Shown: positions 7,830 through 24,000, numbered from the stretch's first letter. The stretch: 24,000 bases of DNA from Burkholderiales bacterium PBB1 (GCA_002255905.1 NKIN01000003.1:13925-37924), one strand, 5' to 3'. The notes: generated by a model from the sequence alone, not told the origin. Program-made: numbers and translations.

Positions 7830-7974
7830 GGGCTGGGGTGTGAGTGGTTACTGCTGAAGTCAGACGTTCGATCGCGATCGTGGGCTGATTGCAACCGACC
7901 CATCACTGCTCGTCGTGGCGCCACTTCGTCGTTAGGTCGACCCCCACGGGAGCTTAGAGCGGCGCCCGGATTCT

Positions 7975-9570: not shown

Positions 9571-9772
9571 CGTCAATCTGCTCTTCGACGACAGAGATTC
9601 ACCAGTATGGGCTGCGGTCGCCAGTCCCAATGCTCTGAATAGCGCGAAATAAATACGCCTTAAGCATCAAGGCCCGCGGCTGAACGACCGATACCGTCGA
9701 CGGTTGTCGCATCGGGCAGGTGCCGGCGCGGCAACGTTGATCCCAACAGCAGTTCCCAAGGAGTACGCATCA
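9571..9772. promoter_or_regulatory. Divergent promoter/control region between the ammonia-lyase gene and pyp
   Basis: About 200 nt of non-coding DNA between two divergently oriented starts, so it must carry both promoters. It contains an AT-richer patch (gaatagcgcgaaataaatacgccttaagc, about 9640-9668) and a perfect 12-bp palindrome ACCGTCGACGGT at 9693-9704. No -35/-10 boxes were assigned with confidence. Confidence 0.5.
9758..9763 (+). promoter_or_regulatory. Shine-Dalgarno sequence of pyp
   Basis: AAGGAG lies 9 nt upstream of the ATG at 9773. Confidence 0.65.
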
Positions 9773-10165
9773 ATGACAACCGCAACCATGAACACCCTGG
9801 CCTTTGGCAAGACCGATGTCGAGAATGTCCTCTCGAAGATGAACGACGCTCAGCTCAACAAGCTTGCCTTCGGCGCCATCGAGCTCGACGCCACCGGCAA
9901 GATCCTCAAGTACAACGCGGTAGAGGGGGCGATCACCGGCCGCGACCCCAAGGCTGTCATCGGCAAGAGCTTCTTCACTGAGGTGGCGCCCTGCACCAAC
10001 CGGCCCGAGTTCAAGGGTGTCTTCGACGCTGGCGTGCGTTCGAAGAACCTCAATACGATGTTCGAGTACGTGTTCGACCATCAGATGAAGCCGACCAAGG
10101 TCAAGATTCACATGAAGCGGGCGATCTCCGGCGATACGTACTGGGTATTCGTCAAGCGCGTGTGA
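9773..10165 (+). CDS. pyp: Photoactive yellow protein (PYP), canonical type
   Basis: 130 aa from ATG 9773 (the track ORF starts earlier, at 9704). It is near-colinear with Halorhodospira halophila PYP as I remember it: [67 protein letters not shown] and YWVFVKRV. With a uniform +5 offset it retains the equivalents of Tyr42, Glu46, Thr50, Arg52 and the chromophore Cys69 (TGC at 9992-9994). Confidence 0.95.
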
Positions 10166-11430
10166 GCCCGATGGCCGCAGATCCGACTCAAGGCAAGTCG
10201 CGGCCGTGGCATCGGCGGCCGGGTGCGCTGGCACGCTTCGTCGCCGACCTCGTTGCCGACGAGCTGACCCAGTTGCGACCAGGCGGTGTGTCCTTGCCCA
10301 GCCGTCCCTGGCCGGCCGAACTGGAGCTCGACGAGCAAGGCCTGGGGCTGGATTCCCTCGAACGCCTCTCTGTGGCCGCAGCGCTGAACGAGGCGTTGCA
10401 CCTTCATGAAAGCGGTGTCGAGGACTTGCTGCTGGCTCGGACGCGATTCGGAGAATGGCTGGAGGTCGCAGCCGACGGCCTGTCCGCATTCGATGCATCG
10501 CTGACGTTTCGCACCTCGGGCAGCAGCGGGGTCGCCAAGGCGTGTCCCCACGCACTGACCAATCTGTGGCAGGAGGTCGAGCATCTGGCCAGCCTGGTAC
10601 CCAGCACCCGCCGCTTGCTGGCGGCGGTCCCGGCACACCATCTGTACGGATTCCTGTTCACGGCCCTGCTGCCACAGCGCTTGGGTTGCAGCGAAGTGAT
10701 CGACATCCGTCGAATGACGCCGCAGGCGGTGGCCGCGATGATGCGGCCGGGCGATCTGGTGATCAGTCATCCAGCGCACTGGGCGCTGCTGGCGCGGCAC
10801 GCAGGTCGCTTGGCGTCGGGCGTGCAGGGCGTCACGTCCACGGCGCCATGCCCAGAGGCGCTGGCGAGAACGCTTGAAGCCATCGGACTGGATAGGTTGA
10901 TCCAGGTGTACGGGAGCTCTGAGACCGCTGGCATCGGTACCCGAACCGAATCCGGTGCTGCATTTCGGCTGATGCCTTTCTGGTCACGCGATACTGCAGA
11001 TCCCGATTGTCTTCTGCGCAGAGACGCCGACGGGTCGATCCGCTCTCATGCTGTCCAGGACCAACTGGATTGGCACGATGAGCACCAGTTTGACATTTGT
11101 GGCCGGATGGATGGAGCGGTTCAGGTGGGTGGTACCAATGTGTTTCCGGCGCGGGTGCGGCAGGTGCTGCTCGACCACCCGCAGGTCAGCGATGCAGCAG
11201 TGCGCCTGATGACCCCCGACGAGGGCGCTCGACTCAAGGCCTTTGTGGTGCCTGTCCCGGGCACCGATACCGTGGCACTGACATCAGATCTGTGGCGATG
11301 GACCGAGTCGCGCCTGACCGCGCCCGAGCGACCCAAGGCATTCACCGTGGGGCATCAGTTGCCACAAAACGCCATCGGCAAGCCATCGGACTGGGCGCTG
11401 GACGCATCAAGTCCCGTTGTGCAGTTCTGA
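10162..11430 (+). CDS. pcl: 4-coumarate--CoA ligase, PYP-activation type (short AMP-dependent ligase with an N-terminal carrier-protein-like segment)
   Basis: 422 aa. The GTG start at 10162 overlaps the pyp stop (GTGTGA); an alternative ATG lies at 10171. Adenylate-forming motifs are present: [13 protein letters not shown] (P-loop), [18 protein letters not shown] and the C-terminal NAIGKPSDW (catalytic Lys). It sits immediately downstream of pyp, as in known pyp-pcl clusters. Confidence 0.85.
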
Positions 11431-11438
11431 CGCCGCTG

Positions 11439-13229
11439 TTAGACCAACTGCAGGGGCTCGCGCAGCGCAGGCACTGCCCCAGGCTGCGACTGCGCCCGGG
11501 TTTGTGCGGTGAGCCAGAGGGAGGCTTCTTCGCTGCCCATCGGCCGGGCGTACAGATAACCCTGGGCCTTATCGCATCGCAGTGCTTTCAATGCGTCGGC
11601 TTGTGCTTCGGTTTCCACGCCCTCGGCGACGGTTCCCATGCACAGGCTGCGCGCAACCATCACGGTTGCTTCGATCAGTACACGATGGTGCGCGCTCGTT
11701 GTCACCTGGCTGACGAAGGAGCGATCGATCTTGATCACGTCCACCGGCCACAGGTGCAAGCTGGCCAGGGAGGAGTAACCGGTGCCGAAATCGTCCAGCG
11801 CCAGCTTCACCCCCAGGGCCTTCAGTTCATGCAGCCGCGACTGGATCAGCGGGCTTTCGGCGGCCAGGCTCTCCGTGATCTCGAGTTGCAGGCACTCCGC
11901 CGCCATGCCACTCACCTTCAGCGCGTGACGAACTTCATCAACCAGCGTCGACTCGACCAGCTGTGCCCGCGACAGGTTCACCGACAAGACCTGCGGCGCG
12001 CCACCGTCAAACTGCCGCTGCCACAGCACGAACTGCCGGCAAGCCGAGTGAAGGACGTACGCGCCCAGCGGTCCGATCAGGCCGGTCTCCTCCGCAATTT
12101 CGATGAATTCAATTGGCGAGACCACACCGCGCAGCGGATGCTGCCAGCGCACCAGCGCCTCGAAGCCCGCGACACGACCGTCGTCGAGGTGTGTGATCGG
12201 TTGGTACACGACAAAGAGCTGACCGTCCTGCACGGCCAAGCGCAGTTCACTCTCCAGGCTGGCGCGCCGCCAGGCTCGCTCCTTCATCAGTGGCTCGAAA
12301 ACGCAGTGGCGGGCGCCGCCACCTCTCTTGGCTTCGCGCATCGCGAGGCTGGCGTCCTGCAGTACCGCATCGGCATCGGCAGCGTGGCCATCGCCTAGCG
12401 CCACACCGACGCTGGCCGTGCTGTGCACCAGGCCGCCGCTGATGGCATACGGTTTGCGCAACGCATCGACCAGCCGCTGCGCTACCAAGGCCGCCACATC
12501 AATGCTGGGCACCGCCTCGAGAACGACGACGAACTCATCTACGCCGAGCCGGCCGGCGGTCTGGTCTCCCTGCGAATTGAGGATCACCACATCGCGCTGG
12601 CGTACCGCTGCGTTGATGCGCGACGCCATCATTCGCAGCAGCTCGTCGCCGGCAGCAGGGCCCAGGGTGACGTTCACGCGGTTGAACCGATCGCCGTTGA
12701 TGAACAACACCGCGAATCGATGGTCCGGGTCAATGCGAGCCCGCTCCAGCGTGTGCTCGATGCGTTCCAGCACCACGATGCGGTTCGGCATGGCCGTCAG
12801 GCTGTCGATGCGGCTGGCATCTCGCAACTCCGCCTCGACGTGCTGCCGCTCCAGTCGGAGCGCGGCCGTGATGTCGGTGACGCTGCACATCAACATGTGT
12901 GAGTCCAGGCGCAGCAGGCGGATCGACAGGGTCGGCGGGATGTCATCGCCTATGGGGGGAGGCCCCACACTCACGCGCAGGCCGTCGCAGACCTCACCGC
13001 CGGGGTAAGCAGCGGCGGCAGCTTGATCTCGCAGATGCGGCGCGGACCCTTGCAATACGTCAAACAGGTTGCTCAGATCGCCGCGTGGGGCCAGCGGCAT
13101 CAGCAACTGCGCCGACATCGGATTGATCATCGTGATCTCACCGTCCAACGTCGTCTGTACCAGGCCGATCGGGGCTTGGTACAGGAACTGCATCAGCGCC
13201 TCGTGGGCTGCAGAGCTGGAGTCGCTCAT
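11439..13229 (-). CDS. PAS-GGDEF(degenerate)-EAL signalling protein, predicted c-di-GMP phosphodiesterase
   Basis: 596 aa with an N-terminal PAS-like domain. The GGDEF domain has a degenerate signature GVDEF (12531-12545) and a deviating GDRFNRVNVTLG in place of DxFKxxNDxxGH. The EAL domain looks complete: EALVRW (EAL at 12153-12161), SVNLS, EITE, DDFGTGYSSL, KIDRSF, EGVETE and QGYLYARP. Confidence 0.9.
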   Translation of the reverse strand: MSDSSSAAHEALMQFLYQAPIGLVQTTLDGEITMINPMSAQLLMPLAPRGDLSNLFDVLQGSAPHLRDQAAAAAYPGGEVCDGLRVSVGPPPIGDDIPPTLSIRLLRLDSHMLMCSVTDITAALRLERQHVEAELRDASRIDSLTAMPNRIVVLERIEHTLERARIDPDHRFAVLFINGDRFNRVNVTLGPAAGDELLRMMASRINAAVRQRDVVILNSQGDQTAGRLGVDEFVVVLEAVPSIDVAALVAQRLVDALRKPYAISGGLVHSTASVGVALGDGHAADADAVLQDASLAMREAKRGGGARHCVFEPLMKERAWRRASLESELRLAVQDGQLFVVYQPITHLDDGRVAGFEALVRWQHPLRGVVSPIEFIEIAEETGLIGPLGAYVLHSACRQFVLWQRQFDGGAPQVLSVNLSRAQLVESTLVDEVRHALKVSGMAAECLQLEITESLAAESPLIQSRLHELKALGVKLALDDFGTGYSSLASLHLWPVDVIKIDRSFVSQVTTSAHHRVLIEATVMVARSLCMGTVAEGVETEAQADALKALRCDKAQGYLYARPMGSEEASLWLTAQTRAQSQPGAVPALREPLQLV

Positions 13230-13255
13230 CTATCGCTCAATCTTCGCTGTGATGG

Positions 13256-14575
13256 TCAAGTCAATGCGGCGACCGCTGCAGGCCGCAAGCCTGGATGCCA
13301 CCGTTCCACACGGTTGCGCCCGGAGGCCTTGGCGCGGTACATCGCCAGGTCGGCTCGCTCGATGAAGGCTTCGACGCTGTCCACCGACGCATCCATCGTC
13401 GCCACGCCTATGCTCACCGTGTAATGCAGACTCGCGCTGTTCACGTTGACCGCCTGCTCGGAAACGCTGTGACATAGGCGCTGAGCGACCGTGGCAGCGG
13501 CATCTTCGGTGCAGCCTGGCAGCAGCACCACGAACTCTTCACCGCCCAAACGCGCGACGATGTCCATGGCTCGGAACGTGGCCGACAGGCCGGCGGCCAG
13601 GTGACGAAGCACCGCATCGCCTGCTGCATGACCATGCTCGTCGTTGATGCGCTTGAAGTGGTCCGCATCGATCAGCACCAGTGACAGCGGCCGGGGGGTG
13701 CGGCGCCAGCGCTGCAGCTCCAACTCGCAGGCCTCGAACAGCGCGCGGCGATTGGCCAGGCCAGTAAGGTGGTCACATGCCACCGAGCGGCGCAGCGCCT
13801 CGGTGGCTTCGCGCCGGTCGGACACATCCCGGATCACCAGGCTGTAGGCGCGCTCTTCGTCCAAGGCTTCATCGGGCGCGTGCAAAGGCGCGATCAGGCA
13901 ACTGCCCCAGAAGCGGCTTCCATCTGCGCGTTGGCGCCAGCCTTCATCCAGACTCCAGCCACTGCGATCGGCCTCGTGCAGCCGGTCGATGGCGTCCATC
14001 GATTCCAGCGAATCGGGTGGGTAAAAGATCGAATATGACTTGCCGACGCAGGTGGCGCTCTGATGGGCGGTCACGCGCTCCACACTGCTGTTCCAATCGC
14101 GCACCCGACCCTGGTCGTCCAGCGTCATCAGGCCGTAGTCCGTCAGTCCAGTGACGATGGTGTTGATCCACGCCTGGCTTTGCCTCAACTCACGTTCGCG
14201 CTGCACGCTTTGCGTGACGTCGCCGAGCACCGCCATCAGGCGACCCTCATCGAGCTTCAACAATGTCAGCGACAAGATGCTTCGACCCAGCTTGCGTACG
14301 GGGTCCGCGGCCACCCGCAGTTGCCAGCCTTCGCAGATCATGCCGTGCGAGGACTCGAAGCGTTGCACGGCGGTCCGCAGGTCTGGCGCGACGCTTTCCA
14401 GGGCGTTGTAGAGGTTGTTGAGCTCGCCGTCGCGTGCCAGTGGCATCAACAGCTGGGCGCACAGCGGGTTCACCATCAGGATCTCGCCATCGATGCGAGT
14501 CTGCATGAGTCCGATCGGAGCGAGGTACAAGAACTGGATCAGCGCCTCGTAGTCTTCCTCAACGGTCGTGTCCAT
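13256..14575 (-). CDS. PAS-PAS-GGDEF diguanylate cyclase
   Basis: 439 aa. It has an N-terminal PAS-like domain paralogous to that of the downstream gene and a second PAS domain (TLDDQGRVRDWNSSVERVTAH...). The GGDEF domain is canonical: DHLTGLANRR, IDADHFKRINDEHGHAAGD, and GGEEF at 13532-13546. An RxxD I-site (RAMD) lies five residues upstream of GGEEF. Confidence 0.9.
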   Translation of the reverse strand: MDTTVEEDYEALIQFLYLAPIGLMQTRIDGEILMVNPLCAQLLMPLARDGELNNLYNALESVAPDLRTAVQRFESSHGMICEGWQLRVAADPVRKLGRSILSLTLLKLDEGRLMAVLGDVTQSVQRERELRQSQAWINTIVTGLTDYGLMTLDDQGRVRDWNSSVERVTAHQSATCVGKSYSIFYPPDSLESMDAIDRLHEADRSGWSLDEGWRQRADGSRFWGSCLIAPLHAPDEALDEERAYSLVIRDVSDRREATEALRRSVACDHLTGLANRRALFEACELELQRWRRTPRPLSLVLIDADHFKRINDEHGHAAGDAVLRHLAAGLSATFRAMDIVARLGGEEFVVLLPGCTEDAAATVAQRLCHSVSEQAVNVNSASLHYTVSIGVATMDASVDSVEAFIERADLAMYRAKASGRNRVERWHPGLRPAAVAALT

Positions 14576-14589
14576 GGCCTGTGGTTGCT

Positions 14590-14982
14590 TCAGGTCGAGC
14601 GTTGGACGAGCACATAGCGGGTGGCCGCCCCGGGCAGCGCCAGCAGCCGCAACTTCACCTTGACCGGGCGCATGCGCAGCGTGAGCACGTAGTCGATGAC
14701 GTCATCCAGCGACGTGCTGTTGGCCAGCGCGTCTTCGAAGCGCTGGGCGACCATGAAGTTGTTCATGCACGGCGCCACCACGGTGAACAGCGGCTGCCCC
14801 AGGACGCGGGCACTCGACAGACCAGCGGCTTTGCTTTCGAAGCTGTTGTAGCGCCGAACGATGCCGTTGGCATCGAAGCCGATCACGCCAAAGTTGAGAG
14901 AGTCGAGTTCGTCGTCGCTGTAGCGGTCCAGTTCGGAATGCAGCGCTGTGTCGCTGAAGGAAACGGCTTGGGTGGTGTGCAT
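14590..14982 (-). CDS. Photoactive yellow protein paralogue (divergent PYP-like single PAS protein)
   Basis: 130 aa, colinear with PYP at a uniform +3 offset. It retains Tyr45 (=Y42), Glu49 (=E46) and Cys72 in VAPC (=C69; codon at 14767-14769). The C-terminal beta-sheet pattern RMRPVKVKLRL...RYVLVQR parallels QMTPTKVKVHM...YWVFVKRV. Thr50 is replaced by Ala and Arg52 by Leu. It is the first gene of the operon with the DGC, whose start lies 14 nt after its stop. Confidence 0.85.
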   Translation of the reverse strand: MHTTQAVSFSDTALHSELDRYSDDELDSLNFGVIGFDANGIVRRYNSFESKAAGLSSARVLGQPLFTVVAPCMNNFMVAQRFEDALANSTSLDDVIDYVLTLRMRPVKVKLRLLALPGAATRYVLVQRST

Positions 14983-15396
14983 AGCAGATTCTCGCGAGAC
15001 CGATCAGTACATCGATATCGGCCGCACGGCTCACAACTTGAGAGTTGCAGCGACCTGTTGATTGCCATCCAGCAGTGATCCAGTGGGTCGGGCCAACAAG
15101 CGCCCACTGATGCATTCGGCAGAGTGCGGGCACCCGACGACCGTGAGTTTTCCTAAGGCCGTCCCTGTGGCCGGCGAGCACATTTGAATCGCTTTGCAGG
15201 CCGCACGGGCGTGCTAGCTCGGTGGTCAGGTTTTCGAATGAAGCAGCCGATCGCACCGGCGAAACTTGACTGGCCGCTTTCGGTGACACCTGTCACTTGT
15301 CCGCGTCATCTGACCGACCGGCACCAGTCTGGTACTGCCCTTCGGGTGCGCGACGTGAAAGCTTGCCGATGGCCGGTTGACGGCGATCAAAACTCC
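14983..15396 (-). promoter_or_regulatory. Long non-coding region upstream of the pyp2 operon (promoter/leader) and downstream of the qor-like gene
   Basis: 414 nt with no convincing ORF, and locally AT-richer than the flanks. By gene arrangement it must hold the pyp2 operon promoter and any terminator for the upstream minus-strand operon. Inverted repeats seen: CAGTGGG-N15-CCCACTG (15081-15109), CAACT-N4-AGTTG (15034-15047) and GTGACA-CC-TGTCAC (15283-15296). Confidence 0.45.
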
Positions 15397-16380
15397 CTAC
15401 CCACCCACCCTCAGCATGATCTTCCCGATGTGCGCGCTGGACTCCATCAGCGCATGGGCCTGCACCACGTCGGCCAGGTCGAACGTCTGGTGAATCACGG
15501 GCTTGATCGTCGCGTTGGCGATCAGGGGCCACACGCGGGCTTCGAGTTCCTTGGCAATGGCGGCCTTGCTCGCGTCTGACCGTGCGCGCAGGGTCGAGCC
15601 GGTGAGGGTCTGCCGCTTCATCATCAGCGGGCGGAAATCGATTTCTGCCTTGCCGCCTTCCAGGAAGGCGATGAAGCAGTAGCGCCCTTCGAGGGCGAGC
15701 GAGCGCAGGTTCTTCTCGATGTAGGGGCCGGCCACCATGTCGAGGATGACATCGACCCCCTTCTTCTTCGTGATCGAGGCGATCCCGGCCATCCAGTCCT
15801 GGGTCTTGTAGTTGAAGACGTGGTCGGCGCCGATGTCGCGGCAGAAGCGGGCCTTGTCTTCATTGCCCACCGTCGTGTACACCTCGGCCCCGAAGGCCTT
15901 GGCCAACTGGATGGCCGCCAGGCCGATCCCGCTCGACCCGCCATGCACCAGAAAGCGCTCGCCGGCCTTGAGCCCGCACGTGCCGAACACATTGACCCAC
16001 ACCGTGAAGAAGTTTTCCGGCAGGCTGGCCGCTTCCAGCAGCGACAGATGGCCCGGTATCGGCAGGCAATGCCCGGCTGGCGCCACGCAGTACTCGGCAT
16101 AGCCACCGCCCGGGGTCAGCGCGCACACCAGGTCGCCGGGCTTCCAGCGGCCGGCTTGCGCACCGGTGGCCACCACCTCGCCCGACACCTCCAGGCCCAT
16201 CACGGGCGAGGCGCCCGGTGGTGGCGCGTAGGTGCCCGAGCGCTGCGCGACGTCGGGCCGGTTCACGCCGGCACAGGCCACCTTGATCAACACGTCGTGG
16301 TCACCGATGGCAGGGAGCGGGCCGGTGGCGACCGACATGACCTCGGGCCCGCCCGAGGCCGTGGCGGTGACATAGCGCAT
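15397..16380 (-). CDS. NAD(P)H:quinone oxidoreductase, MDR superfamily (PIG3/Qor-like)
   Basis: The track ORF is 15397..16422. Homologue-like N-terminus MRYVTATASGGPEVMSV suggests the ATG at 16380 (327 aa). MDR features are present: VLIKVACAGVNRPDVAQRSGTY, GLEVSGEVV, the Rossmann motif VHGGSSGIGLAAIQLAK, and the C-terminus HIGKIMLRV. Confidence 0.85.
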   Translation of the reverse strand: MRYVTATASGGPEVMSVATGPLPAIGDHDVLIKVACAGVNRPDVAQRSGTYAPPPGASPVMGLEVSGEVVATGAQAGRWKPGDLVCALTPGGGYAEYCVAPAGHCLPIPGHLSLLEAASLPENFFTVWVNVFGTCGLKAGERFLVHGGSSGIGLAAIQLAKAFGAEVYTTVGNEDKARFCRDIGADHVFNYKTQDWMAGIASITKKKGVDVILDMVAGPYIEKNLRSLALEGRYCFIAFLEGGKAEIDFRPLMMKRQTLTGSTLRARSDASKAAIAKELEARVWPLIANATIKPVIHQTFDLADVVQAHALMESSAHIGKIMLRVGG

Positions 16381-16437
16381 CGTGGCGGGCAGCGTTGCGG
16401 CGGTGGGGGGTGTGGCGCTCATGCAGGGCGGGTGGGT

Positions 16438-17508
16438 CTACAGGCGGCGCGGCATCAGCACGGTGTAATCGAGGTCGAGCACCACCGCCGGGTCGCTGGC
16501 ACCGGCTGCGTCCTGGTCGGGGTAGTCGTGGCATGCGCGGTCCTTGGTCGCCACGGTGCGCAGCCGCAGCGCGCCCACATCGGCGCGGCCGGGCAGCGGG
16601 GTCTTGCCCAGCACTTCGGACCAGGCATAGATGGTGTCGCCCGCAAAGCTCGGGGCCGCGTGCCGGCCGCCGTTGATCGCGGCGATGCACAGCGCATTCG
16701 CCAGCCCATTGAACGACAAGGCGCGCGCCAGGCTGATGACATGACCACCGTAGACGATGCGCTTGCCGAAACGGCCTTCGCGCTCCACGTGCTGGTTGAA
16801 GTGCACCTTGGCGGTGTTCTGGTACAGCCGCGTGGCCAGCATGTGCTCGGCTTCTTCGATGGTCATGCCGTCGACGTGGTCAATGCGCTCGCCCACCGCG
16901 TAGTCGTCCCACAGAAACTCGCTGCCCGCCCGCACGGCGTCGTAGGGCAGGGCGCCCAGCGCCCACGGGCAGTGCAGATCCTCCACCGGCACGGCCTCGG
17001 GCAGCGTCGGCACCACGGCGTCGGGCGCCGGTGCATCGAGGTCGCGCTTGCGCACCATCACCCAGCGGCGAAAGTCCAGCACCATCTCGCCGCGCTGGTT
17101 GGTGCCGGTTGAATGCACGTAGACCACGCCGGTCTTGCCGTCCTTGTTCTGGCGCAGGCCGATCACGGTGGAGTCGCTGGTCACGGTGTCGCCGGGGTAC
17201 ACGAAGGCGCCGAAGCGGCAGCCTGCATACCCGAGGTTGGCGACCGCGTTCAGCGAGACATCGGCCACCGTGCGGCCAAACACCATGTGGAAGGCCAGCA
17301 TCGAATCGACCGGCGCACACGGCAGCCCGAGGGCCTGGGCGAACGGGTCCGACGACGACAGCGCGAACCGCGAGCCGAACAGCGCGGTGTACATCGCCAC
17401 GTCGCCGGTGGTGAGGGTGCGCGGTACCGCGTGCGCGATGTGCTGGCCGAGGCGGAAGTCTTCGAAGTAGTTGCCGGCGCGTGTCTTGGTGCGGGTTTGG
17501 GTGGTCAT
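16438..17508 (-). CDS. MaoC-like double hot-dog enoyl-CoA hydratase, mesaconyl-CoA (2-methylfumaryl-CoA) hydratase-like (Mch)
   Basis: 356 aa. The N-terminus GNYFEDFRLGQHIAHAVPRTLTTGD, the size (about 350 aa) and the two-lobed MaoC layout fit the Mch family. It lies 13 nt downstream of an Mcl-type lyase gene. The subfamily call is inference from context plus remembered family features. Confidence 0.7.
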   Translation of the reverse strand: MTTQTRTKTRAGNYFEDFRLGQHIAHAVPRTLTTGDVAMYTALFGSRFALSSSDPFAQALGLPCAPVDSMLAFHMVFGRTVADVSLNAVANLGYAGCRFGAFVYPGDTVTSDSTVIGLRQNKDGKTGVVYVHSTGTNQRGEMVLDFRRWVMVRKRDLDAPAPDAVVPTLPEAVPVEDLHCPWALGALPYDAVRAGSEFLWDDYAVGERIDHVDGMTIEEAEHMLATRLYQNTAKVHFNQHVEREGRFGKRIVYGGHVISLARALSFNGLANALCIAAINGGRHAAPSFAGDTIYAWSEVLGKTPLPGRADVGALRLRTVATKDRACHDYPDQDAAGASDPAVVLDLDYTVLMPRRL

Positions 17509-17521
17509 GGCGGCCCTGTCC

Positions 17522-18565
17522 CTAGAAGCCGTAGGCTGCGGCCAGTTCAGGATCCTTGCGTGCCACCAGGCGCGCCAGATCGACCATCACCTTGGCCTGC
17601 TTCCAGGTGGCGTCGTCCTGCATCTTGCCGTCGATGGTGGCCACACCGGTGCCATCGGGCATGGCCTCGAGGATGCGCTTGGCGAACAGCACCTCCTTCA
17701 CGTCGGGGCTGAACACGCGCTTGGCGATGGCGATCTGGTTCGGCGCCAGCGACCACGCGCCGGCACAGCCCATGATGAAGGCGTTGCGGAATTGCGCTTC
17801 GCAGCCGGCTTCGTCCTTCAGGTCGCCGAACGGGCCGTAGAAGCTGCGCAGGCCGCTGGCCGCGCAGGCGTCGACCATGCGCGCCAGCGTGTAGTGCCAC
17901 AGGTCCTGCTGCACATAGCTGCGCTCGGGCTGGCCCTCGACCGGATCGGCCAGCACGCCGTAACCCGGGTGGCCACCGCCAACGCGGGTGGTCTTCATGC
18001 CGCGCGAGGCCGCCAGGTCGGCGGGGCCCAGGCTCATGCCGTGCATCCGCGGGCTGGCCTGCGCGATCTGCTCGACGTTCTTCACGCCTTCGGCGGTTTC
18101 GAGCAGCGCATGGATCAGGATGGGCTTCTTCACGCCATGCCGCGCCTCGAGCTGCGCCAGGTACTGGTCGACGTAGTGGATGTCCCAGGGCCCCTCGACC
18201 TTCGGGATCATCACCGCGTCGAGCCGGTTGCCGACGCCTTCGACGATCTGCGCCAGGTCGTCGAGGATCCACGGGCTGTTCAGGCAGTTCACCCGCACCC
18301 ACAGGCCGGTGTCGCCAAGGTTGGCGGCTTTCACGCCGTCGATGAAACCCTGCCGCGCCGCGCCCTTGGCGTCGATGGGAATCGCGTCTTCAAGGTTGCC
18401 GCAGAGCACGTCGACCTGCGCCGCGGTGTCGGAGAGGCGGGCGCGGATTTTCTCGATGTGCGGCGGGAAGAAATGCACCACCCGCTCGGGCCGCACCGGC
18501 AGTTCACGGAACGGGGCCGGCGCGCCGATGGCCAGCGGCTTGTAGAAATTGTTGGGCAGCTTCAT
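17522..18565 (-). CDS. L-malyl-CoA/beta-methylmalyl-CoA (citramalyl-CoA) lyase, HpcH/CitE-like aldolase family (Mcl type)
   Basis: 347 aa. Blocks align with characterised malyl-CoA lyases (Rhodobacter Mcl1 and Chloroflexus Mcl, as I remember them): [98 protein letters not shown] and [12 protein letters not shown]. Confidence 0.85.
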
Positions 18566-18593
18566 CGATGCGGATCCTCGCTGGAAATGAGAT

Positions 18594-19820
18594 TCAGGTT
18601 GCCGACGGCCCGGCCACGATGCCGGCGTCGTGCAGTTGGCCGACCTCGGCCGACGGCAGACCGAGCACGTCGAGCAGGATCTGGTCGGTGTGCTCGCCCA
18701 GGCGCGGTGCCGGTCGGGCTGGCAAGCGCGGGACTTTACTGAAGTCCAACGGCGATGCCGGTGCCAGCGAGCGGCCGATGCCCGGCTGGTCGAGCCAGCT
18801 GAACATCGGGTGCGCCGTCGACAGGTCAGGGTCCTGCTCGATCGCCTGGCGCACGGTGCGGTAAGGGCCCCAGGTCACGCGGGCGGCTTCGAAGGCGGCC
18901 CGCACCTCGGCCAGCGTGCGCGCGGCAAACCACGGGGCAAAAATCGCCACCAGCGCCTCGCGCGCGAGAAAGCGATTGCCTTCCTGGTTCAGATCGAGCC
19001 CGGTCTGCTCTGACAGCGCGGTGATTGCTGCGGCCGTGCCGGTGGCCTTGACCAGGCAGCTCCACTGCAGGTCGGTGAGGCCCACCACCATCGCACGTTC
19101 GCCGTCTCGGGTGACGAAGTCGCAGCCAAAGGCGCCATACAGGTGGTTGCCGTAGCGTGGTCGGTCGACGTCGTTGACCTGCACCTCGGCCAGCATGCCC
19201 AGATGGCCGAGCATGGCCAGGCCCACGTCCTTCAATGCCAACGTGACGAGCTGGCCCTCGGCGTGCCGGTCGCGGTGGCGAAGGGCGGCGAGCATCGCTG
19301 TCGCGATCATGTTGCCGGCAATCGCGTCCCAGGCCGGGAACACATGGTTGGCAGGCACCGGGCTGTCGGCCGGGCCGGTCAGCATCGGGAACCCAAGACC
19401 GGGGTTGACGGTGTAGTCGACCTCCGACCCGCCGTCGCGGCGGCCGAGCAGGTTGACCATGATGAGGTCGGCGCGCCGGGATGCCAGCGTGTCGTAGGCC
19501 AGCCAGCCGCGCGCCGGGAAGTTGGTGCTGAACAGCCCCGCATCGGCGCCTGGGGCGCAGATCAGCGCAGTCAGCAGTTCCTGCCCGCGCGGCTGGCGGA
19601 TGTCGACCGCAATCGAGCGCTTGCCCTTGTTCATGCCGGCCCAGAACAGCGATGCCCCGTTGGCGGCCACCGGCCAGCGGGCGTGGTCCAGTCCGCCACC
19701 GATGGGGTCGAAGCGGATCACGTCGGCGCCGAGTTGGGCGAGCGTCATGCCGCCGAGTGGCGCTGCGACGAAGGCCGAGCCTTCGATCACGCGCAAGCCA
19801 TGAAGAATGCCGTTTGCCAT
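18594..19820 (-). CDS. Class III (CaiB/BaiF family) CoA-transferase, divergent member
   Basis: 408 aa with the N-terminal family motif [31 protein letters not shown]. Its start codon directly abuts the stop of the upstream transferase (TGA-ATG, 0-nt spacer at 19820/19821). It is much less similar to the two upstream transferases than they are to each other. Confidence 0.85.
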
Positions 19821-21050
19821 TCAGACCACCCCGGTCGCACGCAGATGCGCGATTTGCGCGTCGTCCAGGCCGAGCAGTTCGTGCAGCACCTCGTCGGTGT
19901 GCTCGCCGAGCTTGGGGCCCAGGCTGCGGATGCTCGCCGGCGTCTCCGACAGCCGTGGCACGGGCGCCGGCACGATGACCTGCTCGCCCGTGTCCGGTGC
20001 GTCCATGGTCACCAGGTTGCGACGGGCATGGAACTGCCGATCGCCGAAGATGTCCGCGATGTTGTTCAGCGGGCCGGCCGGCGTGTCGGTGGCGTAGCAG
20101 CGCTCGAGTACCTGCTCGCGGGTCAGCGCACCGCACCAGTCGCGCACGATCTCGTTGACGTCGTGGCGGTGGGCCAGCCGCGTGGCCTGCTCGCCGTAGG
20201 TCTCTGCCGTGGCGAGTTCGGGCCGGCCCATGGCCTTGGCCAGACGCTCGAACAGCAGGTCGGTGGCGCAGCTGATGGCGACCCACTTGCCGTCTTTCGT
20301 CGAGAAGTGCCCGTGCGGAACGGCGAAGTCGTTGTGCGACGAGCCTGAACGTTCACGCACGGTGCCGAACATGCCGTAGGCCGGCGCCAGTTCCTCGGTG
20401 CAACGGAACACCGACTCGTACAGCGCCGCATCGACGTACTGCCCGATACCCGTGCGCTCCTTGTGGCGCAGCGCCAGCATCACGCCCAGGCACCCGTACA
20501 GGCCGGTCATGTAATCGCCCAGCGTCGTCGAGCCGGGCGTGACCGGTGTGCCCTTGGGCATGCCGGCCAGGTAGGCGATGCCGCCGACGGCATGCGCCAC
20601 GCGGGCGAAACCGGGGCGGTCCTTGTAGGGCCCGGTCTGACCATAGCCGGTCACGCGCAGCATGACCAGGCCGGGGTTGATCTTCTTCAGCACCTCCCAG
20701 CCCAGGCCCCATTTCTCGAGCGTGCCGGTGCGAAAGTTCTCGCACAGCACGTCGGTCTTGGCGATCATCTGCTTGAAGACCTCGCCGCCTTCGGGATGGC
20801 GCAGATCAAGGGTGACCGAACGCTTGTTGCGCCCCTCGCTCAGCCAGGTCAGCGTGTCGCCCCGCTGCGACGGCGTGCCGAAGCGCCGCAGCGCATCGCC
20901 GCCGTCGGGGTGCTCGACCTTCAGCACCTCGGCGCCGAATTCGCCCAGCAACGTGGCGCAGAAGGGCGCGGCGATCACCGTGGCCAGGTCGATGACGCGG
21001 ATACCGGCCAGCGGCAGCGGCGTGGGCGGGCTGACATTCGAGGCGTTCAT
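19821..21050 (-). CDS. Class III (CaiB/BaiF family) CoA-transferase, paralogue B
   Basis: 409 aa. It has [47 protein letters not shown] and [10 protein letters not shown]-like C-terminal blocks. Only a 1-nt spacer separates it from the upstream paralogue, and its RBS (GAAAGG) lies inside that gene's 3' end. Confidence 0.85.
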
Positions 21051-21051
21051 G

Positions 21052-22275
21052 TCAGATCACCTTTCTTTCACGCAGCCTGTGCAGTTCTTCAGCGTGTACA
21101 CCGAGCAGGCCGTGCAGCACGTCGGTGGTGGCGTTGCCCAGGGTCGGGCCGAGGTGGGTGATGCGCCCGGGCGTGGCCGACAGGCGCGGGATCACGCCCG
21201 GCACCACCACTTCGCCGAGTTCGTCGGCAGGCACACGTGCCAGATTGCCGCGCGCTGCAAAGTGCTCGTCGACAAAGATGTCGGCGATCGAGTTGACCTT
21301 GCCCACGGGCACCTCCTCGGCCAGACAGCGTTCAAGCACGTCGGTGCGCTCGAGCGAGGCCACCCATTCGGTGACGATCTTGTTGATGTGGTCACGCGCG
21401 GCCAGGCGCTTGCGCTGCGGGCCGTACTGGTCGGGCGCCGACAGCTCGGGCCGGCCCATCGCCACGCTCAGCCGCTCGAACATCTTGTCGGTGGTGCAGG
21501 CGATGGCGATCCATTTGTCGTTCTTGGTCCGGAAGTGGCCGTGCGGACAGGCCACGAAGCTGCCCGAGCCTTCACGCTCGCGGATCTTGCCGTGCAGCCC
21601 GTACGAAGCGGCAATTTCCTCGAGCACGCGGAAGATGGCTTCGTAGATGCCCACGTCGATGACCTGACCGACGCCGGTGGCCTCGGCGTGCCGCAGCGCG
21701 ACCAGCACGCCGATGGCTCCGAACAGGCTGGCGATGTAGTCGCCCAAGGGCACCGTGCCAGGCAGCACCGGGGTCTCGCCCGGAAAGCCGGCCAGGTAGT
21801 TCAGCCCGCCGAAGGCCTGTGCAATGTGGGCGAAGCCGTGGCGGCGGCGGTAGGGTCCGGTCTGGCCGTATCCGGTCACGCGCAGCATCACCAGCTTGGG
21901 GTTGGCCTGGCGCAGCACGTCCCACCCCAGGCCCCACCCTTCCATCGTTCCCGGGCGGAAGTTCTCGATCAGCACGTCGCTCTTGGCCACGAGCTTCAGG
22001 AACAGCGCCACGCCTTCGGGCTGCAGCAGATCGATGGTCACCGAGCGCTTGTTGCGACTCTCGCTCAACCATTTGAGGGTCGCATCGGGGCGATCGGTCG
22101 GGGTGCCGAAGCGGCGCATCGGGTCGCCGCCCAGCGGATGCTCGACCTTGATCACGTCGGCACCGAACTCGCCCATCACCGCGCCCGCGTACGGCCCCGC
22201 GAGGAAGTTCCCGACGTCGATGACGCGCACGCCATCCAGTGGCAGTTCGGCGGGCGTGGCGTCGGTCGGCATCAT
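21052..22275 (-). CDS. Class III (CaiB/BaiF family) CoA-transferase, paralogue A
   Basis: 407 aa, with [33 protein letters not shown] and [14 protein letters not shown]. It is colinear with paralogue B, with roughly half the positions identical by eye. It is the first gene of the minus-strand operon, and GGAG/GAGG lies upstream of the tandem ATG ATG start. Confidence 0.85.
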
Positions 22276-22431
22276 CGGCTACCTCACTCCGAAAGGGAGG
22301 AATGTGGCGCGTCGGACTACGCAACCTCTCACCAGCTTAGGTTCATTCCCACGATCGTTACCGGGTGGATTCCCGCGTGACGCGTTTCTGCATCACTGGA
22401 CTAGCATCTTCCGATTTGACGGGGGCACGAC
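22276..22431. promoter_or_regulatory. Divergent promoter region between the CoA-transferase operon and the Meh/Ich-like hydratase gene
   Basis: 156 nt of non-coding DNA between divergent starts. It contains a small 5-1-5 palindrome CGCGT-G-ACGCG (22374-22384). No regulator gene lies within the window. Confidence 0.45.
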
Positions 22432-23280
22432 GTGACTACCGACTTCAGCGCCTGGATAGGCCGCACCGAGACGTCCGAGGATCCGCTGTCCGTGGTGCAG
22501 GCACAGGCCGCGCACGCCACGTTCGATGAACCCGGGCCGTTGATCGCCGCTGGCGACCCGTTGCCGCTGCCCTGGCACTGGTTCTACTTTCTGCCGCGCG
22601 CGCCGCAGGCCATGCTCGACGCCGACGGGCACCCGCAGCGCGGCGGCTTCCTGCCGCCGATCCCGTACCCGCGCCGCATGTTTGCCGGTGCCCGCATCAC
22701 GGTGCACCGGCCGCTCGTGGTGGGCACGCCCGCGGTGCGCCAATCGACGATCCGCAACGTCGTGATGAAGTCGGGCAGGAGCGGCGCGCTCGGTTTCGTG
22801 ACGGTGGCGCAGCGCTTCAGCCAGGGCAGCGAGTTGTGCCTGGAGGAAGAGCAGGACATCGTCTACCGCGAGCCTGGCGATCGGGTCGAGGCGCCGATCG
22901 CGGCCGAACTGCCGCCACCGCCGGCAGGCACCTGGGTGCGCACAGTGCAGCCCGACACGCGGCTGCTGTTTCGCTTCTCGGCACTGACCTTCAACGCGCA
23001 CCGGATTCACTACGACCGGAGTTACGCCCGCGACGTCGAGGGCTACCCCGGCCTGGTCGTGCACGGTCCGCTGACGGCGGCGCTGCTGCTGCAACTGGTG
23101 CGACGATCCACGCCGCGGCCGGTGCGTGCCTTCAGCTTCCGCGGCGTGGCGCCGCTGTTCGACCTCGGGCCTGTGCGCCTGGTCGGCACGCTCGACGGCG
23201 ACACGGTCGCCCTCGAAGCGCAGGGCCCGGACGGCGCGGCGGCGCTGGCGGCATCGGCCACGTTGGCAGCGGCGGGCTGA
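22432..23280 (+). CDS. Double hot-dog acyl dehydratase/hydratase, mesaconyl-C4-CoA / itaconyl-CoA hydratase-like (Meh/Ich family)
   Basis: 282-aa GTG-start ORF. The pattern PLPLPWHWFYFLP...GHPQRGGFLPP...RRMFAGARI in the N-terminal half and FSALTFNAHRIHYD...GYPGLVVHGPL in the C-terminal half are typical of this hydratase family. It is divergent from the CoA-ester operon. Confidence 0.7.
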   Translation: MTTDFSAWIGRTETSEDPLSVVQAQAAHATFDEPGPLIAAGDPLPLPWHWFYFLPRAPQAMLDADGHPQRGGFLPPIPYPRRMFAGARITVHRPLVVGTPAVRQSTIRNVVMKSGRSGALGFVTVAQRFSQGSELCLEEEQDIVYREPGDRVEAPIAAELPPPPAGTWVRTVQPDTRLLFRFSALTFNAHRIHYDRSYARDVEGYPGLVVHGPLTAALLLQLVRRSTPRPVRAFSFRGVAPLFDLGPVRLVGTLDGDTVALEAQGPDGAAALAASATLAAAG

Positions 23281-23373
23281 GGCAGAAAGTCGGCCGTCTG
23301 TGCCAGGTCATCTTCGCTGCCTCAGACCGATCCGCAGCCAGCCGCACGCTGCTGGGGCCGCTTTGTGCGCAGA

Positions 23374-23625
23374 TCAGTCCTTGCGGGCCCGTGCCGCGAC
23401 GGCGCGGCGGCGGGCCAGGATCCACCAGGTGTTCAGGCCTGTCAGCACCATCAGCGGCCAGAGCATGGTGCAGATCAGGGTCCACATCACGCGCCCGTCC
23501 AGCGGGTCGCTCTCGCTGTTGTCGCGGCGCTTGGTCGGCCCTTCGCTGAACAGGTGCCGGTTCGAGTAGGTCAGCAGCCCGAAGCAGAAGCCGAAGACGA
23601 GAAACAGGGCGATGGGGAGGTTCAT
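23374..23625 (-). CDS. Small hypothetical membrane protein (two predicted TM helices)
   Basis: The internal ATG at 23625 is preceded by AAGGA (the track ORF extends to 23718). The product is 83 aa with two hydrophobic stretches (LPIALFLVFGFCFGLLTY and VMWTLICTMLWPLMVLTGL) and a basic tail. I recognise no family. Confidence 0.45.
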   Translation of the reverse strand: MNLPIALFLVFGFCFGLLTYSNRHLFSEGPTKRRDNSESDPLDGRVMWTLICTMLWPLMVLTGLNTWWILARRRAVAARARKD

Positions 23626-23779
23626 GGTGCAGTCCTTGGACGGGGCCTGAGGTTTTCGGGCGGGGCCGCTCTGAGGACGCAGCTGACGCATGGTAGGCGC
23701 CGCGGTACCCGGGCGCAAGCGCGGCGACGGTACGCTGTCGTATTTGCAGCCGGGTCGCTGGCTCAGCCGTGACCCAGGC

Positions 23780-24000
23780 TCATCGGATCAGCAGCACCGG
23801 CGTCTTGCATTGGGCGATCACCTTGGTGGCCACCGAGCCCATGACGGCGTTGACCAGGTTGCCGTGCCCGTGGGAGCCCATCATCAACAGATCGAACGAG
23901 CCGCTTTCGGCCTGCTTGGCGATGACATTGGCGGCAGGGCCCACCTTGGAGACGAATTCGGCCGCGATGCCGCGCTGCTTGAAGAAGGCTCGGATGGGCT
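23780..24000 (-). CDS. Universal stress protein (UspA family), C-terminal part; gene continues beyond the window
   Basis: My hand translation of the minus strand gives ...AKQAESGSFDLLMMGSHGHGNLVNAVMGSVATKVIAQCKTPVLLIR* with the stop at 23780-23782. This is the classic UspA C-terminal ATP-binding motif G-x2-G-x9-G(S/T). It is absent from the ORF track because the start lies outside the window. Confidence 0.8.
   Translation of the reverse strand, partial: PIRAFFKQRGIAAEFVSKVGPAANVIAKQAESGSFDLLMMGSHGHGNLVNAVMGSVATKVIAQCKTPVLLIR

Follow-up and report, generated by a model that had tools for sequence, protein, structure and literature searches.

The metagenome-assembled genome (MAG) 'Burkholderiales bacterium PBB1', from an uncultured, high-GC bacterium, carries a compact set of genes for enzymes acting on CoA esters within the 24-kb stretch of DNA analysed here (hereafter the window). 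The locus raises the question of whether these genes make up a route of their own, one half of a 3-hydroxypropionate bi-cycle completed elsewhere in the genome, or a cluster for the degradation of itaconate and related acids.

Organization of the locus

The ORF listing places six tightly spaced genes on the minus strand (15397-22275) and a hydratase gene running divergently from them (22432-23280). The features are:

22432-23280, plus strand: meh, 282 aa, GTG start; mesaconyl-C4-CoA hydratase / itaconyl-CoA hydratase family
22276-22431, no strand: intergenic region of 156 bp between the divergent meh and the operon
21052-22275, minus strand: smtA-like class III CoA-transferase, 407 aa
19821-21050, minus strand: smtB-like class III CoA-transferase, 409 aa
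18594-19820, minus strand: mct, 408 aa
17522-18565, minus strand: mcl, 347 aa
16438-17508, minus strand: mch, 356 aa; mesaconyl-C1-CoA hydratase (beta-methylmalyl-CoA dehydratase)
15397-16422, minus strand: qor, 341 aa; PIG3-family NAD(P)H quinone oxidoreductase

From low to high coordinate, the gaps between the minus-strand genes measure 15, 13, 28, 0 and 1 nt, as the first-pass annotation of this DNA had given them. Its family calls also stand in the profile searches, which return three CoA_transf_3 proteins, one HpcH_HpaI lyase, one double MaoC/MC_hydratase protein and one MDR (PIG3 family) oxidoreductase, with a double hot-dog hydratase as the product of the divergent gene. We infer that the operon genes are co-transcribed. 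The whole string, two CoA-transferase genes (ctA and ctB) followed by mct-mcl-mch-qor with meh divergent, recurs in three further independent assemblies (L086, L092 and L093), and an assembly artefact is ruled out as the origin of the arrangement because the string is identical in all three. An exact copy of mct-mcl-mch is also present in the Logan assembly L081.

The 156-bp intergenic region presumably holds the putative promoters and operators for both meh and the operon. Alignment of 11 Burkholderiales loci reveals two conserved blocks within it, one at 22361-22377, reading CGCGGGAATCCACCCGG on the minus strand, and a second at 22339-22349, GGAATGAACCT, and both may have a functional role. 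Neither a sigma-70 consensus promoter nor a match to an Rfam family was found in these 156 bp. No regulator gene adjoins the PBB1 cluster; relatives carry LysR genes nearby.

Assignment of the lyase and CoA-transferases

The lyase Mcl aligns without gaps over residues 2-346 with Mcl of Chloroflexus aurantiacus (PDB 4L7Z/4L80) at 655 bits, versus 196 bits for the R. sphaeroides type (4L9Y) and at most 77 bits for CitE-like chains; the grouping with CitE for which the first-pass annotation had allowed was thus not observed. Mcl also scores far under the cut-offs of both the RipC_Ccl and the citE models. All seven residues taken from structural papers are kept, each at query position n-1: N58, the water-binding Glu60 and Asp61, the catalytic Arg92, the Mg2+ ligands Glu157 and Asp184, and Asp318 of the lid. 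By sequence, Mcl groups with the Chloroflexus-type trifunctional malyl-CoA/beta-methylmalyl-CoA/citramalyl-CoA lyase (MCLC, CitE-like superfamily), as a predicted enzyme of that type.

Mct spans the TIGR04253 model from end to end (positions 1-403 of 403) with 686.4 bits, 39 bits below the curated cut-off of 725, and matches the Roseiflexus (PDB 7XKG, 667 bits) and Chloroflexus (8APQ, 657 bits) structures over its full length. Ten functional residues have been named in C. aurantiacus Mct (PMC9813914), and all ten are kept, L43 and R47 at query positions 44 and 48 and the remaining eight (R75, N100, F101, R104, E133, D135, Y136 and D165) under the same number. They comprise the catalytic Asp165, Arg47 and Tyr136, which bind mesaconate, the 'cork' of Arg75, Phe101 and Arg104, and Leu/Ile43, which makes the entrance narrower and is a specific trait of intramolecular transferases (PMC9813914). 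Mct is a predicted intramolecular mesaconyl-CoA C1-C4 transferase; NCBI annotates the exact sequence (OYT98738.1) as '2-methylfumaryl-CoA isomerase'.

No curated model exists for SmtAB, and the pair was assigned by orthology and synteny. The smtA-like protein (PF02515, 380 bits), which contains a GD motif with the catalytic Asp at residue 184, shares 74-75% identity with the syntenic gene adjoining meh in Chloroflexus loci, and the smtB-like protein (PF02515, 388 bits) shares 78-79% with its own syntenic Chloroflexus gene. The two adjacent genes, 1 nt apart, encode paralogues with 56% identity to each other, and by synteny with Chloroflexus loci L018 and L023 they occupy the positions of Caur_0179 and Caur_0178, which are smtA and smtB, respectively (PMC3150298). 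The succinate-glutarate and succinyl-CoA:mesaconate transferase models score far under their cut-offs for this pair, and all three transferases stay below the cut-offs of the oxalate and carnitine models, families that the first-pass annotation had named as the competing assignment.

Hydratases and the itaconate alternative

Mch is a fused double MaoC/hot-dog protein of 356 aa, with PF19315 MC_hydratase (above cut-off) and PF01575 domains. It matches the C. aurantiacus MaoC-domain dehydratase (PDB 4E3E) at 599 bits over residues 7-355 and the beta-methylmalyl-CoA dehydratase 8HGN at 459 bits. Meh gives weak FAS1_DH_region/MaoC matches in Pfam, shares 63% identity with its divergently placed counterpart in the Chloroflexus loci L018 and L023, and aligns over residues 4-254 with the itaconyl-CoA hydratase of P. 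aeruginosa (PDB 8KHG/8HUC; E 6e-65, about 50% identity).

The last of these matches bears on a reading in which the cluster degrades itaconate, mesaconate or citramalate in the manner of Ict/Ich/Ccl. The Pseudomonas/Yersinia itaconate cluster has its hydratase family in common with PBB1 Meh, as well as the chemistry leading from mesaconyl-C4-CoA through citramalyl-CoA to acetyl-CoA and pyruvate; the PBB1 locus also encodes class III CoA-transferases and a lyase of the CitE superfamily, and it gives partial matches to the RipB/Ich and RipC/Ccl models. All curated itaconate models nevertheless remain under cut-off: RipC_Ccl (NF038242) scores 124 bits against 375, and RipB_Ich (NF038241) 111 bits against 340, the latter on Mch rather than on Meh. 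The lyase belongs to another subfamily, the Chloroflexus Mcl type, Mct and Mch are additional and have no role in itaconate degradation, and, unlike the pseudomonad cluster of PMC12290011, the PBB1 cluster contains no acyl-CoA dehydrogenase or MmgE/PrpD isomerase. As the entire unit is also syntenic with bi-cycle genes, we consider the itaconate alternative weak and highly improbable.

The five operon genes from smtA to mch and the divergent gene are instead orthologues of Chloroflexus smtA, smtB, mct, mcl, mch and meh. The full-length matches of Mct, Mcl and Mch (667, 655 and 599 bits) and the Chloroflexus synteny of smtA, smtB and meh bear out the enzymology proposed in the first-pass annotation.

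A widespread core operon

The C. aurantiacus glyoxylate cluster (mch Caur_0173, mcl Caur_0174, mct, smtB Caur_0178, smtA Caur_0179, meh Caur_0180) has the same six genes as PBB1, and their order and orientation match down to the divergent meh. The PBB1 proteins are 63-80% identical to those of Chloroflexus and Roseiflexus, and none of the catalytic residues checked in Mct and Mcl is altered. The PBB1 cluster differs in the quinone oxidoreductase appended to it and in its gaps of 0-28 nt, compared with hundreds of nucleotides in the Chloroflexus loci.

The order of meh on one strand, then ctA, ctB, mct, mcl and mch on the other, recurs unchanged in Chloroflexus (L018, L023), Roseiflexus and Chloroploca, and also in Gemmatimonadota, Planctomycetota, Myxococcota and many Burkholderiales, with 60-92% identity across loci. 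When one genome per species was scanned, relatives of Mct were detected at 517 loci at least, many of them in members of the Burkholderiales including Rhizobacter, Rubrivivax and Methylibium, and this operon organization has been reported for Burkholderiales and Gemmatimonadota MAGs (Garritano et al. 2022, PMC9802188). The initial impression that such a set is unusual in a betaproteobacterium-like genome does not survive this comparison: the cluster is real but largely ordinary, because clusters of this kind are common and already on record in Burkholderiales.

The trailing qor gene

The first-pass annotation counted the oxidoreductase as a member of the unit, and the comparison does not support this. 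The qor gene follows mch only in the PBB1-like loci (the window, L086, L092 and L093) and is absent from that position in all others; orthologues with 76-78% identity are located elsewhere, among aspS, ssb and uvrA. Its product matches TIGR02824 with 454 bits (cut-off 297) and PDB 4DUP with an E value of 1e-104. An alternative start at the ATG at 16380, which would widen the gap to mch to 57 nt, is plausible since residue 15 is the first one covered by the TIGR02824 match and the L092 gene is called at 327 aa from an equivalent start. We interpret qor as a common housekeeping-type PIG3 oxidoreductase that probably shares the transcript and has no role specific to the pathway.

The PBB1 lineage lacks dabBA, pcs and mcr at the locus

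What is new here is the contrast with the nearest relatives: their cluster is larger, and the PBB1 lineage has the six-gene core only, followed by qor. The Burkholderiales/Gemmatimonadota bi-cycle clusters (PMC9802188; L002, L082 and L084) belong to the same sequence clade and have the same core operon organization as PBB1. In L002, L082 and L084, the core is embedded in a dabBA - meh, smtAB-mct-mcl-mch-pcs-mcr arrangement with meh divergent; pcs and mcr lie directly 3' of mch in L082, L084 and most of the wider clade, and dabBA lies upstream in L002, L082 and L084/85. The pcs product of these relatives (1842-1868 aa) combines AMP-binding, ECH and ADH_zinc_N domains, and the mcr product (about 1225-1240 aa) contains two SDR domains. 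Identity to the window proteins reaches 85-97% in L082 and 73-95% in L084, with 95% and 90%, respectively, for Mct alone. In the window and the three closest assemblies, pcs, mcr and dabBA are missing at the locus, where mch is followed by qor: there is no trace of pcs, mcr or dab in the 24-kb window, and none within 10 kb of the cluster in L086, L092 and L093. A neighbour-joining tree of five concatenated proteins joins the window with L086 (100% bootstrap), then with L082 (98%) and then with L084 (100%). The six-gene core without dabBA, pcs and mcr at this locus is a derived state in the PBB1 lineage.

The opposite configuration is found in two other Burkholderiales, L090 and L091, which have pcs-mcr without the six-gene module. 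In L091, exactly the six-gene module is deleted, dabBA-pcs-mcr is retained, and mch survives as a relic of its last ~20 codons.

Since the window covers only 24 kb of the MAG, PBB1 may have pcs, mcr and perhaps dabBA at another place in its genome. In that case its 3-hydroxypropionate bi-cycle would be complete and autotrophic (CO2-fixing) or mixotrophic, and the module would supply one of the halves. Such a split is in keeping with the pcs-mcr loci that lack the module (L090 and L091), with the full gene set in the closest relatives beyond the PBB1 group (L082 and L084) and with several Burkholderiales MAGs scored complete (Garritano et al. 2022, PMC9802188), but neither the window nor the 10-kb flanks of L086, L092 and L093 hold a remnant of pcs, mcr or dab. 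None of the best 120 Pcs homologues is traceable to PBB1 either, a weak argument as most of them carry no organism label. We regard a complete bi-cycle in PBB1 as possible but doubtful.

The module corresponds by orthology and synteny to the part of the Chloroflexus bi-cycle that assimilates glyoxylate. Because it stands apart from dabBA, pcs and mcr at the PBB1 locus, it most likely constitutes a stand-alone route there, a reading to which we assign a probability of about 0.6.

Proposed pathway and direction of flux

By analogy with the Chloroflexus enzymes, SmtAB would transfer CoA from succinyl-CoA to (S)-malate, and Mcl would cleave the resulting (S)-malyl-CoA into acetyl-CoA and glyoxylate. 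Mcl would also join glyoxylate and propionyl-CoA into beta-methylmalyl-CoA, which Mch would dehydrate to mesaconyl-C1-CoA; Mct would shift the CoA within the molecule to yield mesaconyl-C4-CoA, Meh would hydrate this product to (S)-citramalyl-CoA, and Mcl would finally split the latter into acetyl-CoA and pyruvate. The net reaction of the module would thus turn glyoxylate and propionyl-CoA into acetyl-CoA and pyruvate, and the module alone would fix no CO2. Such a route would co-assimilate or interconvert glyoxylate (for instance from glycolate), propionyl-CoA, malate and C5-dicarboxylate CoA esters. The substrates, direction of flux and physiological role proposed here are putative, and heterotrophic co-assimilation would be a plausible function.

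The steps catalysed by the Chloroflexus enzymes are all reversible in principle, so the direction of flux is not fixed by sequence. Operating in reverse, the module would convert acetyl-CoA and pyruvate via citramalyl-CoA, mesaconyl-C4-CoA, mesaconyl-C1-CoA and beta-methylmalyl-CoA to glyoxylate along with propionyl-CoA; glyoxylate and acetyl-CoA would then form malyl-CoA, from which SmtAB would release malate. This citramalyl-CoA route, an assimilation of acetate without isocitrate lyase, needs exactly Mcl, Meh, Mct, Mch and SmtAB, and some relatives, among them Rubrivivax gelatinosus, have been reported to have no isocitrate lyase or malate synthase activity (PMC8307300). At least one relative with pcs-mcr, L090, however, encodes isocitrate lyase nearby, and the linkage to pcs, mcr and dabBA in full-cluster relatives points to the forward, glyoxylate-consuming direction. 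We therefore judge the reverse operation improbable.

A stand-alone module has precedents, as partial bi-cycles without mcr and pcs have been proposed to serve heterotrophic assimilation in Candidatus Kentron (PMC6593406) and likewise in Actinobacteriota MAGs (PMC9802188). Kentron resembles PBB1 at this 24-kb locus in having the glyoxylate-assimilation enzymes without mcr and pcs, and its proposed role is the assimilation of organic acids; it is a marine gammaproteobacterial symbiont with genome-wide and expression evidence, whereas the PBB1 data are those of a 24-kb window. The gamma-1 symbiont of Olavius algarvensis, also a marine gammaproteobacterial symbiont, reportedly has a further partial bi-cycle without mcr and pcs (cited in PMC9813914).

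Implications

With the PBB1 cluster, a further Burkholderiales lineage joins the growing number of non-Chloroflexota bacteria with genes of the 3-hydroxypropionate bi-cycle. Its comparative value is modest and lies in a series of very close relatives with the full cluster, the glyoxylate module only or the pcs-mcr part only, which is suited to asking what each half does alone and how bacteria acquire or lose the pathway. The enzymes share 73-80% identity with their Chloroflexus counterparts, have a mesophile-like, high-GC host and may also offer alternative parts for synthetic photorespiratory bypasses.

We tentatively propose, at less than even odds, that the PBB1 lineage is a natural example of a bi-cycle split into its halves, the glyoxylate module being kept without dabBA-pcs-mcr, with L091 as its complement. 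If PBB1 is without pcs and mcr genome-wide, the module would act in these free-living freshwater Burkholderiales as a heterotrophic unit that is autonomous and selectable, used forward for the co-assimilation of glyoxylate and propionyl-CoA or in reverse as an acetate route free of isocitrate lyase, and the bi-cycle would assemble and disassemble by modules within one bacterial order.

Gene content and enzyme identities

The ORF list yields seven genes at exactly the coordinates of the first-pass annotation, and Pfam and NCBIfam agree with the families named there: three class III CoA-transferases, a lyase, a MaoC hydratase, an MDR oxidoreductase and a divergent hydratase.

The six-gene module and qor in the window (ORF list, Pfam, NCBIfam)
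15397-16422, minus: qor, MDR oxidoreductase of the PIG3 family
16438-17508, minus: mch, fused double-MaoC hydratase
17522-18565, minus: mcl, HpcH/HpaI-fold lyase
18594-19820, minus: mct, class III CoA-transferase, 408 aa
19821-21050, minus: smtB-like, class III CoA-transferase
21052-22275, minus: smtA-like, class III CoA-transferase
22432-23280, plus: meh, divergent double hot-dog hydratase

The six minus-strand ORFs are separated by gaps of 15, 13, 28, 0 and 1 nt, and a 156-bp intergenic region lies between this operon and the divergent meh. The cluster has a GC content of 0.67-0.71, as do the housekeeping genes near the window's left edge; it therefore bears no compositional sign of recent acquisition.

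Solved structures at 73-80% identity exist for module enzymes, and comparison with them is decisive for the predicted identity of mct, mcl and mch. Mct aligns end to end with its Roseiflexus castenholzii (7XKG, 667 bits) and Chloroflexus aurantiacus (8APQ, 657 bits) counterparts. Mcl matches C. aurantiacus Mcl (4L7Z/4L80) over residues 2-346 without gaps at 655 bits, versus 196 bits for the R. sphaeroides type and at most 77 bits for CitE-like proteins. Mch scores 599 bits against C. aurantiacus 4E3E and 459 bits against the beta-methylmalyl-CoA dehydratase 8HGN. The residues described as functional in Mct are the catalytic Asp165, Arg47 and Tyr136, the 'cork' formed by Arg75, Phe101 and Arg104, and Asn100, Glu133, Asp135 and Leu43, the last of which constricts the entrance and occurs specifically in intramolecular enzymes (PMC9813914); the window Mct keeps all of them. 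Likewise, the window Mcl keeps the residues reported as functional in the structural study of that enzyme (Asn58, Glu60, Asp61, Arg92, Glu157, Asp184 and Asp318; PMC3832036).

The smtA-like and smtB-like transferases are paralogues (56% identical) with no close match among solved structures or curated models, and these two genes and meh were identified by synteny as the putative counterparts of the Chloroflexus genes. The C. aurantiacus locus tags are mch 0173, mcl 0174, smtB 0178, smtA 0179 and meh 0180 (PMC3150298), and on these positions the gene adjoining meh is named smtA-like and the gene adjoining mct smtB-like. Structure matches, residues and synteny together support the enzymology first proposed for this operon and sharpen it to orthology with the Chloroflexus genes.

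Distribution of the module

The window Mct is identical to OYT98738.1 ('MAG: 2-methylfumaryl-CoA isomerase [Burkholderiales bacterium PBB1]'). Its close homologues in a large protein collection number thousands, the best 120 all being 79-98% identical, and a scan of one genome per species found at least 517 loci with an Mct relative. We mapped the seven window proteins onto the best 80 of these at least 517 loci. The same arrangement, meh (-) divergent from transferase A, transferase B, mct, mcl and mch (+), occurs in Chloroflexus (L018, L023), Roseiflexus and Chloroploca, in further Chloroflexota including Ktedonobacteraceae and Caldilineaceae, in Gemmatimonadota, Planctomycetota, Myxococcota and Steroidobacteraceae, and in many Burkholderiales (Rhizobacter, Rubrivivax, Methylibium). 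Identities between the window proteins and those of the Chloroflexus loci are 63% for Meh, 74-75% for transferase A, 78-79% for transferase B, 73% for Mct, 79-80% for Mcl and 75% for Mch.

The literature contains related cases. TIGR04253 served Garritano et al. (2022) as a marker of the 3-hydroxypropionate bi-cycle (PMC9802188), Pfister et al. included the Mct of the betaproteobacterium Candidatus Accumulibacter phosphatis among the intramolecular transferases (PMC9813914), and for Kentron a partial bi-cycle lacking mcr (malonyl-CoA reductase) and pcs (propionyl-CoA synthase) was put forward as a means of heterotrophic assimilation (PMC6593406). The published cases therefore do not support the view that a compact set of this kind would be out of the ordinary in a betaproteobacterium-like genome, and together with the at least 517 Mct-relative loci and the many Burkholderiales carrying the set they refute it.

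Itaconate degradation is a minor rival reading; Meh is ~50% identical to the P. aeruginosa itaconyl-CoA hydratase. We consider this reading very improbable, because the RipB and RipC models score far under their cut-offs, neither Mct nor Mch has a function in itaconate breakdown, and the six-gene unit is syntenic with bi-cycle genes.

Several loci depart from the common arrangement. A reduced variant, meh divergent from mct-mcl-mch without the SmtAB pair, is found in Accumulibacter, Azonexus and related genomes (L045, L051-L055, L062, L069) and in two Gemmatimonadota (L014, L043). In Accumulibacter L052-L055 and L062, a second, distant mch-like gene (30-31% identity) lies ~5 kb upstream; L069 has such a gene at the same distance and identity, and no meh match was found there. 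Mct homologues of 62-67% identity, hosted by Alphaproteobacteria, Myxococcota, Competibacteraceae and Solirubrobacterales (L058, L061, L063, L064, L066, L068, L070-L075, L077-L080), have no Chloroflexus-type partners nearby, and some adjoin distant Mcl- or Mch-like genes (28-34% identity). They may be intramolecular transferases of other pathways.

A larger cluster in the nearest relatives

In the nearest relatives outside the PBB1 group (Mct identity 95% for L082 and 90% for L084/L085), the gene immediately after mch encodes a protein of 1842-1868 aa that combines AMP-binding, enoyl-CoA hydratase and MDR domains. This is the architecture of propionyl-CoA synthase, and the JGI name is acrylyl-CoA reductase/3-hydroxypropionyl-CoA dehydratase/3-hydroxypropionyl-CoA synthetase. 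Next comes a ~1225-1240-aa protein with two SDR domains, the architecture of malonyl-CoA reductase, and upstream of meh lie LysR regulators and the inorganic-carbon uptake pair dabB and dabA. The pcs-mcr continuation also occurs in L002, L005, L006, L009, L010 and L012; in L004 and L007 pcs follows mch before the contig ends, and in L017 pcs-mcr lies upstream of meh.

Single-locus clusters of the order LysR, dabB-dabA, meh / smtA-smtB-mct-mcl-mch-pcs-mcr
L082: 1171-21224
L084: 1485-21224
L002: 2321-21062

In these three loci, nearly all bi-cycle-specific genes and a carbon-concentrating component fall within ~20 kb.

At the nucleotide level, the window is homologous to L082 from window position 23268, in the last codons of meh, to 16431, 7 nt past the mch stop, so the shared unit is exactly the six genes. 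Unmasked tblastn found no pcs, mcr or dab gene or pseudogene remnant in the 24-kb window (none better than E 0.005). A neighbour-joining tree of five concatenated operon proteins (1963 columns, Kimura protein distances) groups the window with its closest relative L086 at 100% bootstrap support, joined by L082 at 98% and by L084 at 100%. The arrangement without pcs and mcr is thus nested among arrangements bearing them, and is derived, via loss or translocation. The window cluster is accordingly a derived form, without pcs and mcr, of a larger Burkholderiales 3HP cluster, and otherwise of a known type.

The main rival to a self-contained module would place pcs and mcr at another site in the genome and make the module one part of a full bi-cycle. 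We searched a set of 5.8 billion proteins with the L082 Pcs, and among the cluster members of ten NCBI-sourced matches, two of them with their genomic contexts, none was traceable to PBB1; we regard a full bi-cycle as possible, if doubtful.

L091 (ENA ERZ12298642), a relative without the module, is the mirror image of the window, a complementary deletion variant in which the module is gone and dabBA-pcs-mcr is kept. At 4197-24776 it joins LysR-LysR-dabB-dabA to pcs-mcr; the ~630-bp joint between dabA and pcs-mcr preserves the final ~20 codons of mch as a relic (DAAVVRDLDHSLLMPRR), and after pcs-mcr comes a gene of 1826 aa that fuses biotin carboxylase, BCCP and carboxyltransferase.

The qor gene and the DNA behind it

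The qor gene starts 15 nt after mch, or 57 nt if the second ATG is used, and this adjacency occurs only in the window and the PBB1-like assemblies L086, L092 and L093. Qor is an ordinary NAD(P)H:quinone oxidoreductase of the PIG3 family (TIGR02824, 454 bits versus a cut-off of 297), all 8000 scored candidates passed E 1e-60, and its orthologues in other Burkholderiales (76-78% identical) lie among aspS, ssb and uvrA. We reject a role as a stand-alone acrylyl-CoA/enoyl-CoA reductase substituting for the Pcs reductase domain: the PIG3 membership is clear, the AcuI/YhdH and crotonyl-CoA reductase models score far under their cut-offs, tblastn gives no similarity to Pcs, and the orthologues occupy housekeeping contexts. 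The qor gene is probably a co-transcribed passenger rather than a pathway enzyme, and Qor could conceivably still act on an enoyl-CoA.

The DNA just past qor differs in each PBB1-like assembly: a photoactive-yellow-protein (PYP) island in the window (7830-15394), glmS directly in L086 (14417 onward), and in L092 (L092/L093 14563-20653) three large genes, most of which lack a Pfam match. The qor end therefore appears to be an insertion hotspot.

The island is a 7.56-kb PYP/c-di-GMP unit absent from L086, in which 2 nt separate the stop codons of qor and glmS. Its GC content is 0.62-0.65 versus 0.68-0.70 in the surroundings, and it has the appearance of an acquired cassette for signalling from blue light to c-di-GMP.

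Genes of the PYP island
7975-9630, minus: tyrosine-ammonia-lyase-like gene
9704-10165, plus: pyp (TIGR02373, 190 bits versus cut-off 143)
10162-11430, plus: 4-coumarate-CoA ligase (TIGR02372, 343 versus cut-off 335)
11439-13229, minus: GGDEF-EAL gene
13256-14575, minus: PAS-GGDEF gene
14590-14982, minus: second, divergent PYP-like gene (75 bits, below cut-off), 14 nt upstream of the PAS-GGDEF gene

Regulation

In the window, the cluster has no regulator gene next to it. Promoter and terminator scans found no sigma-70 consensus promoter at 14500-24000 and a single terminator-like site, inside meh, and an Rfam scan gave no match anywhere in the window. Two blocks of the meh/smtA-like intergenic region are conserved in 11 Burkholderiales loci, and are possibly a shared operator or promoter.

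Conserved blocks (minus-strand readings)
22361-22377: CGCGGGA(A/T)TCCACCCGG
22339-22349: GAAT.TAACCT

Proposed role

We infer substrates, direction and physiology from the characterised Chloroflexus enzymes. SmtAB would convert malate and succinyl-CoA to malyl-CoA, which Mcl would cleave to acetyl-CoA and glyoxylate. Mcl would also join glyoxylate and propionyl-CoA to form beta-methylmalyl-CoA, to be dehydrated by Mch to mesaconyl-C1-CoA; Mct would shift the CoA intramolecularly to give mesaconyl-C4-CoA, Meh would hydrate this to (S)-citramalyl-CoA, and Mcl would finally release acetyl-CoA and pyruvate. Operation of the module in reverse, as a citramalyl-CoA acetate route, seems improbable to us. 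Since neither pcs, mcr nor dabBA is linked to the module at this locus, we favour, with a probability of roughly 0.6, a stand-alone co-assimilation role for the module.
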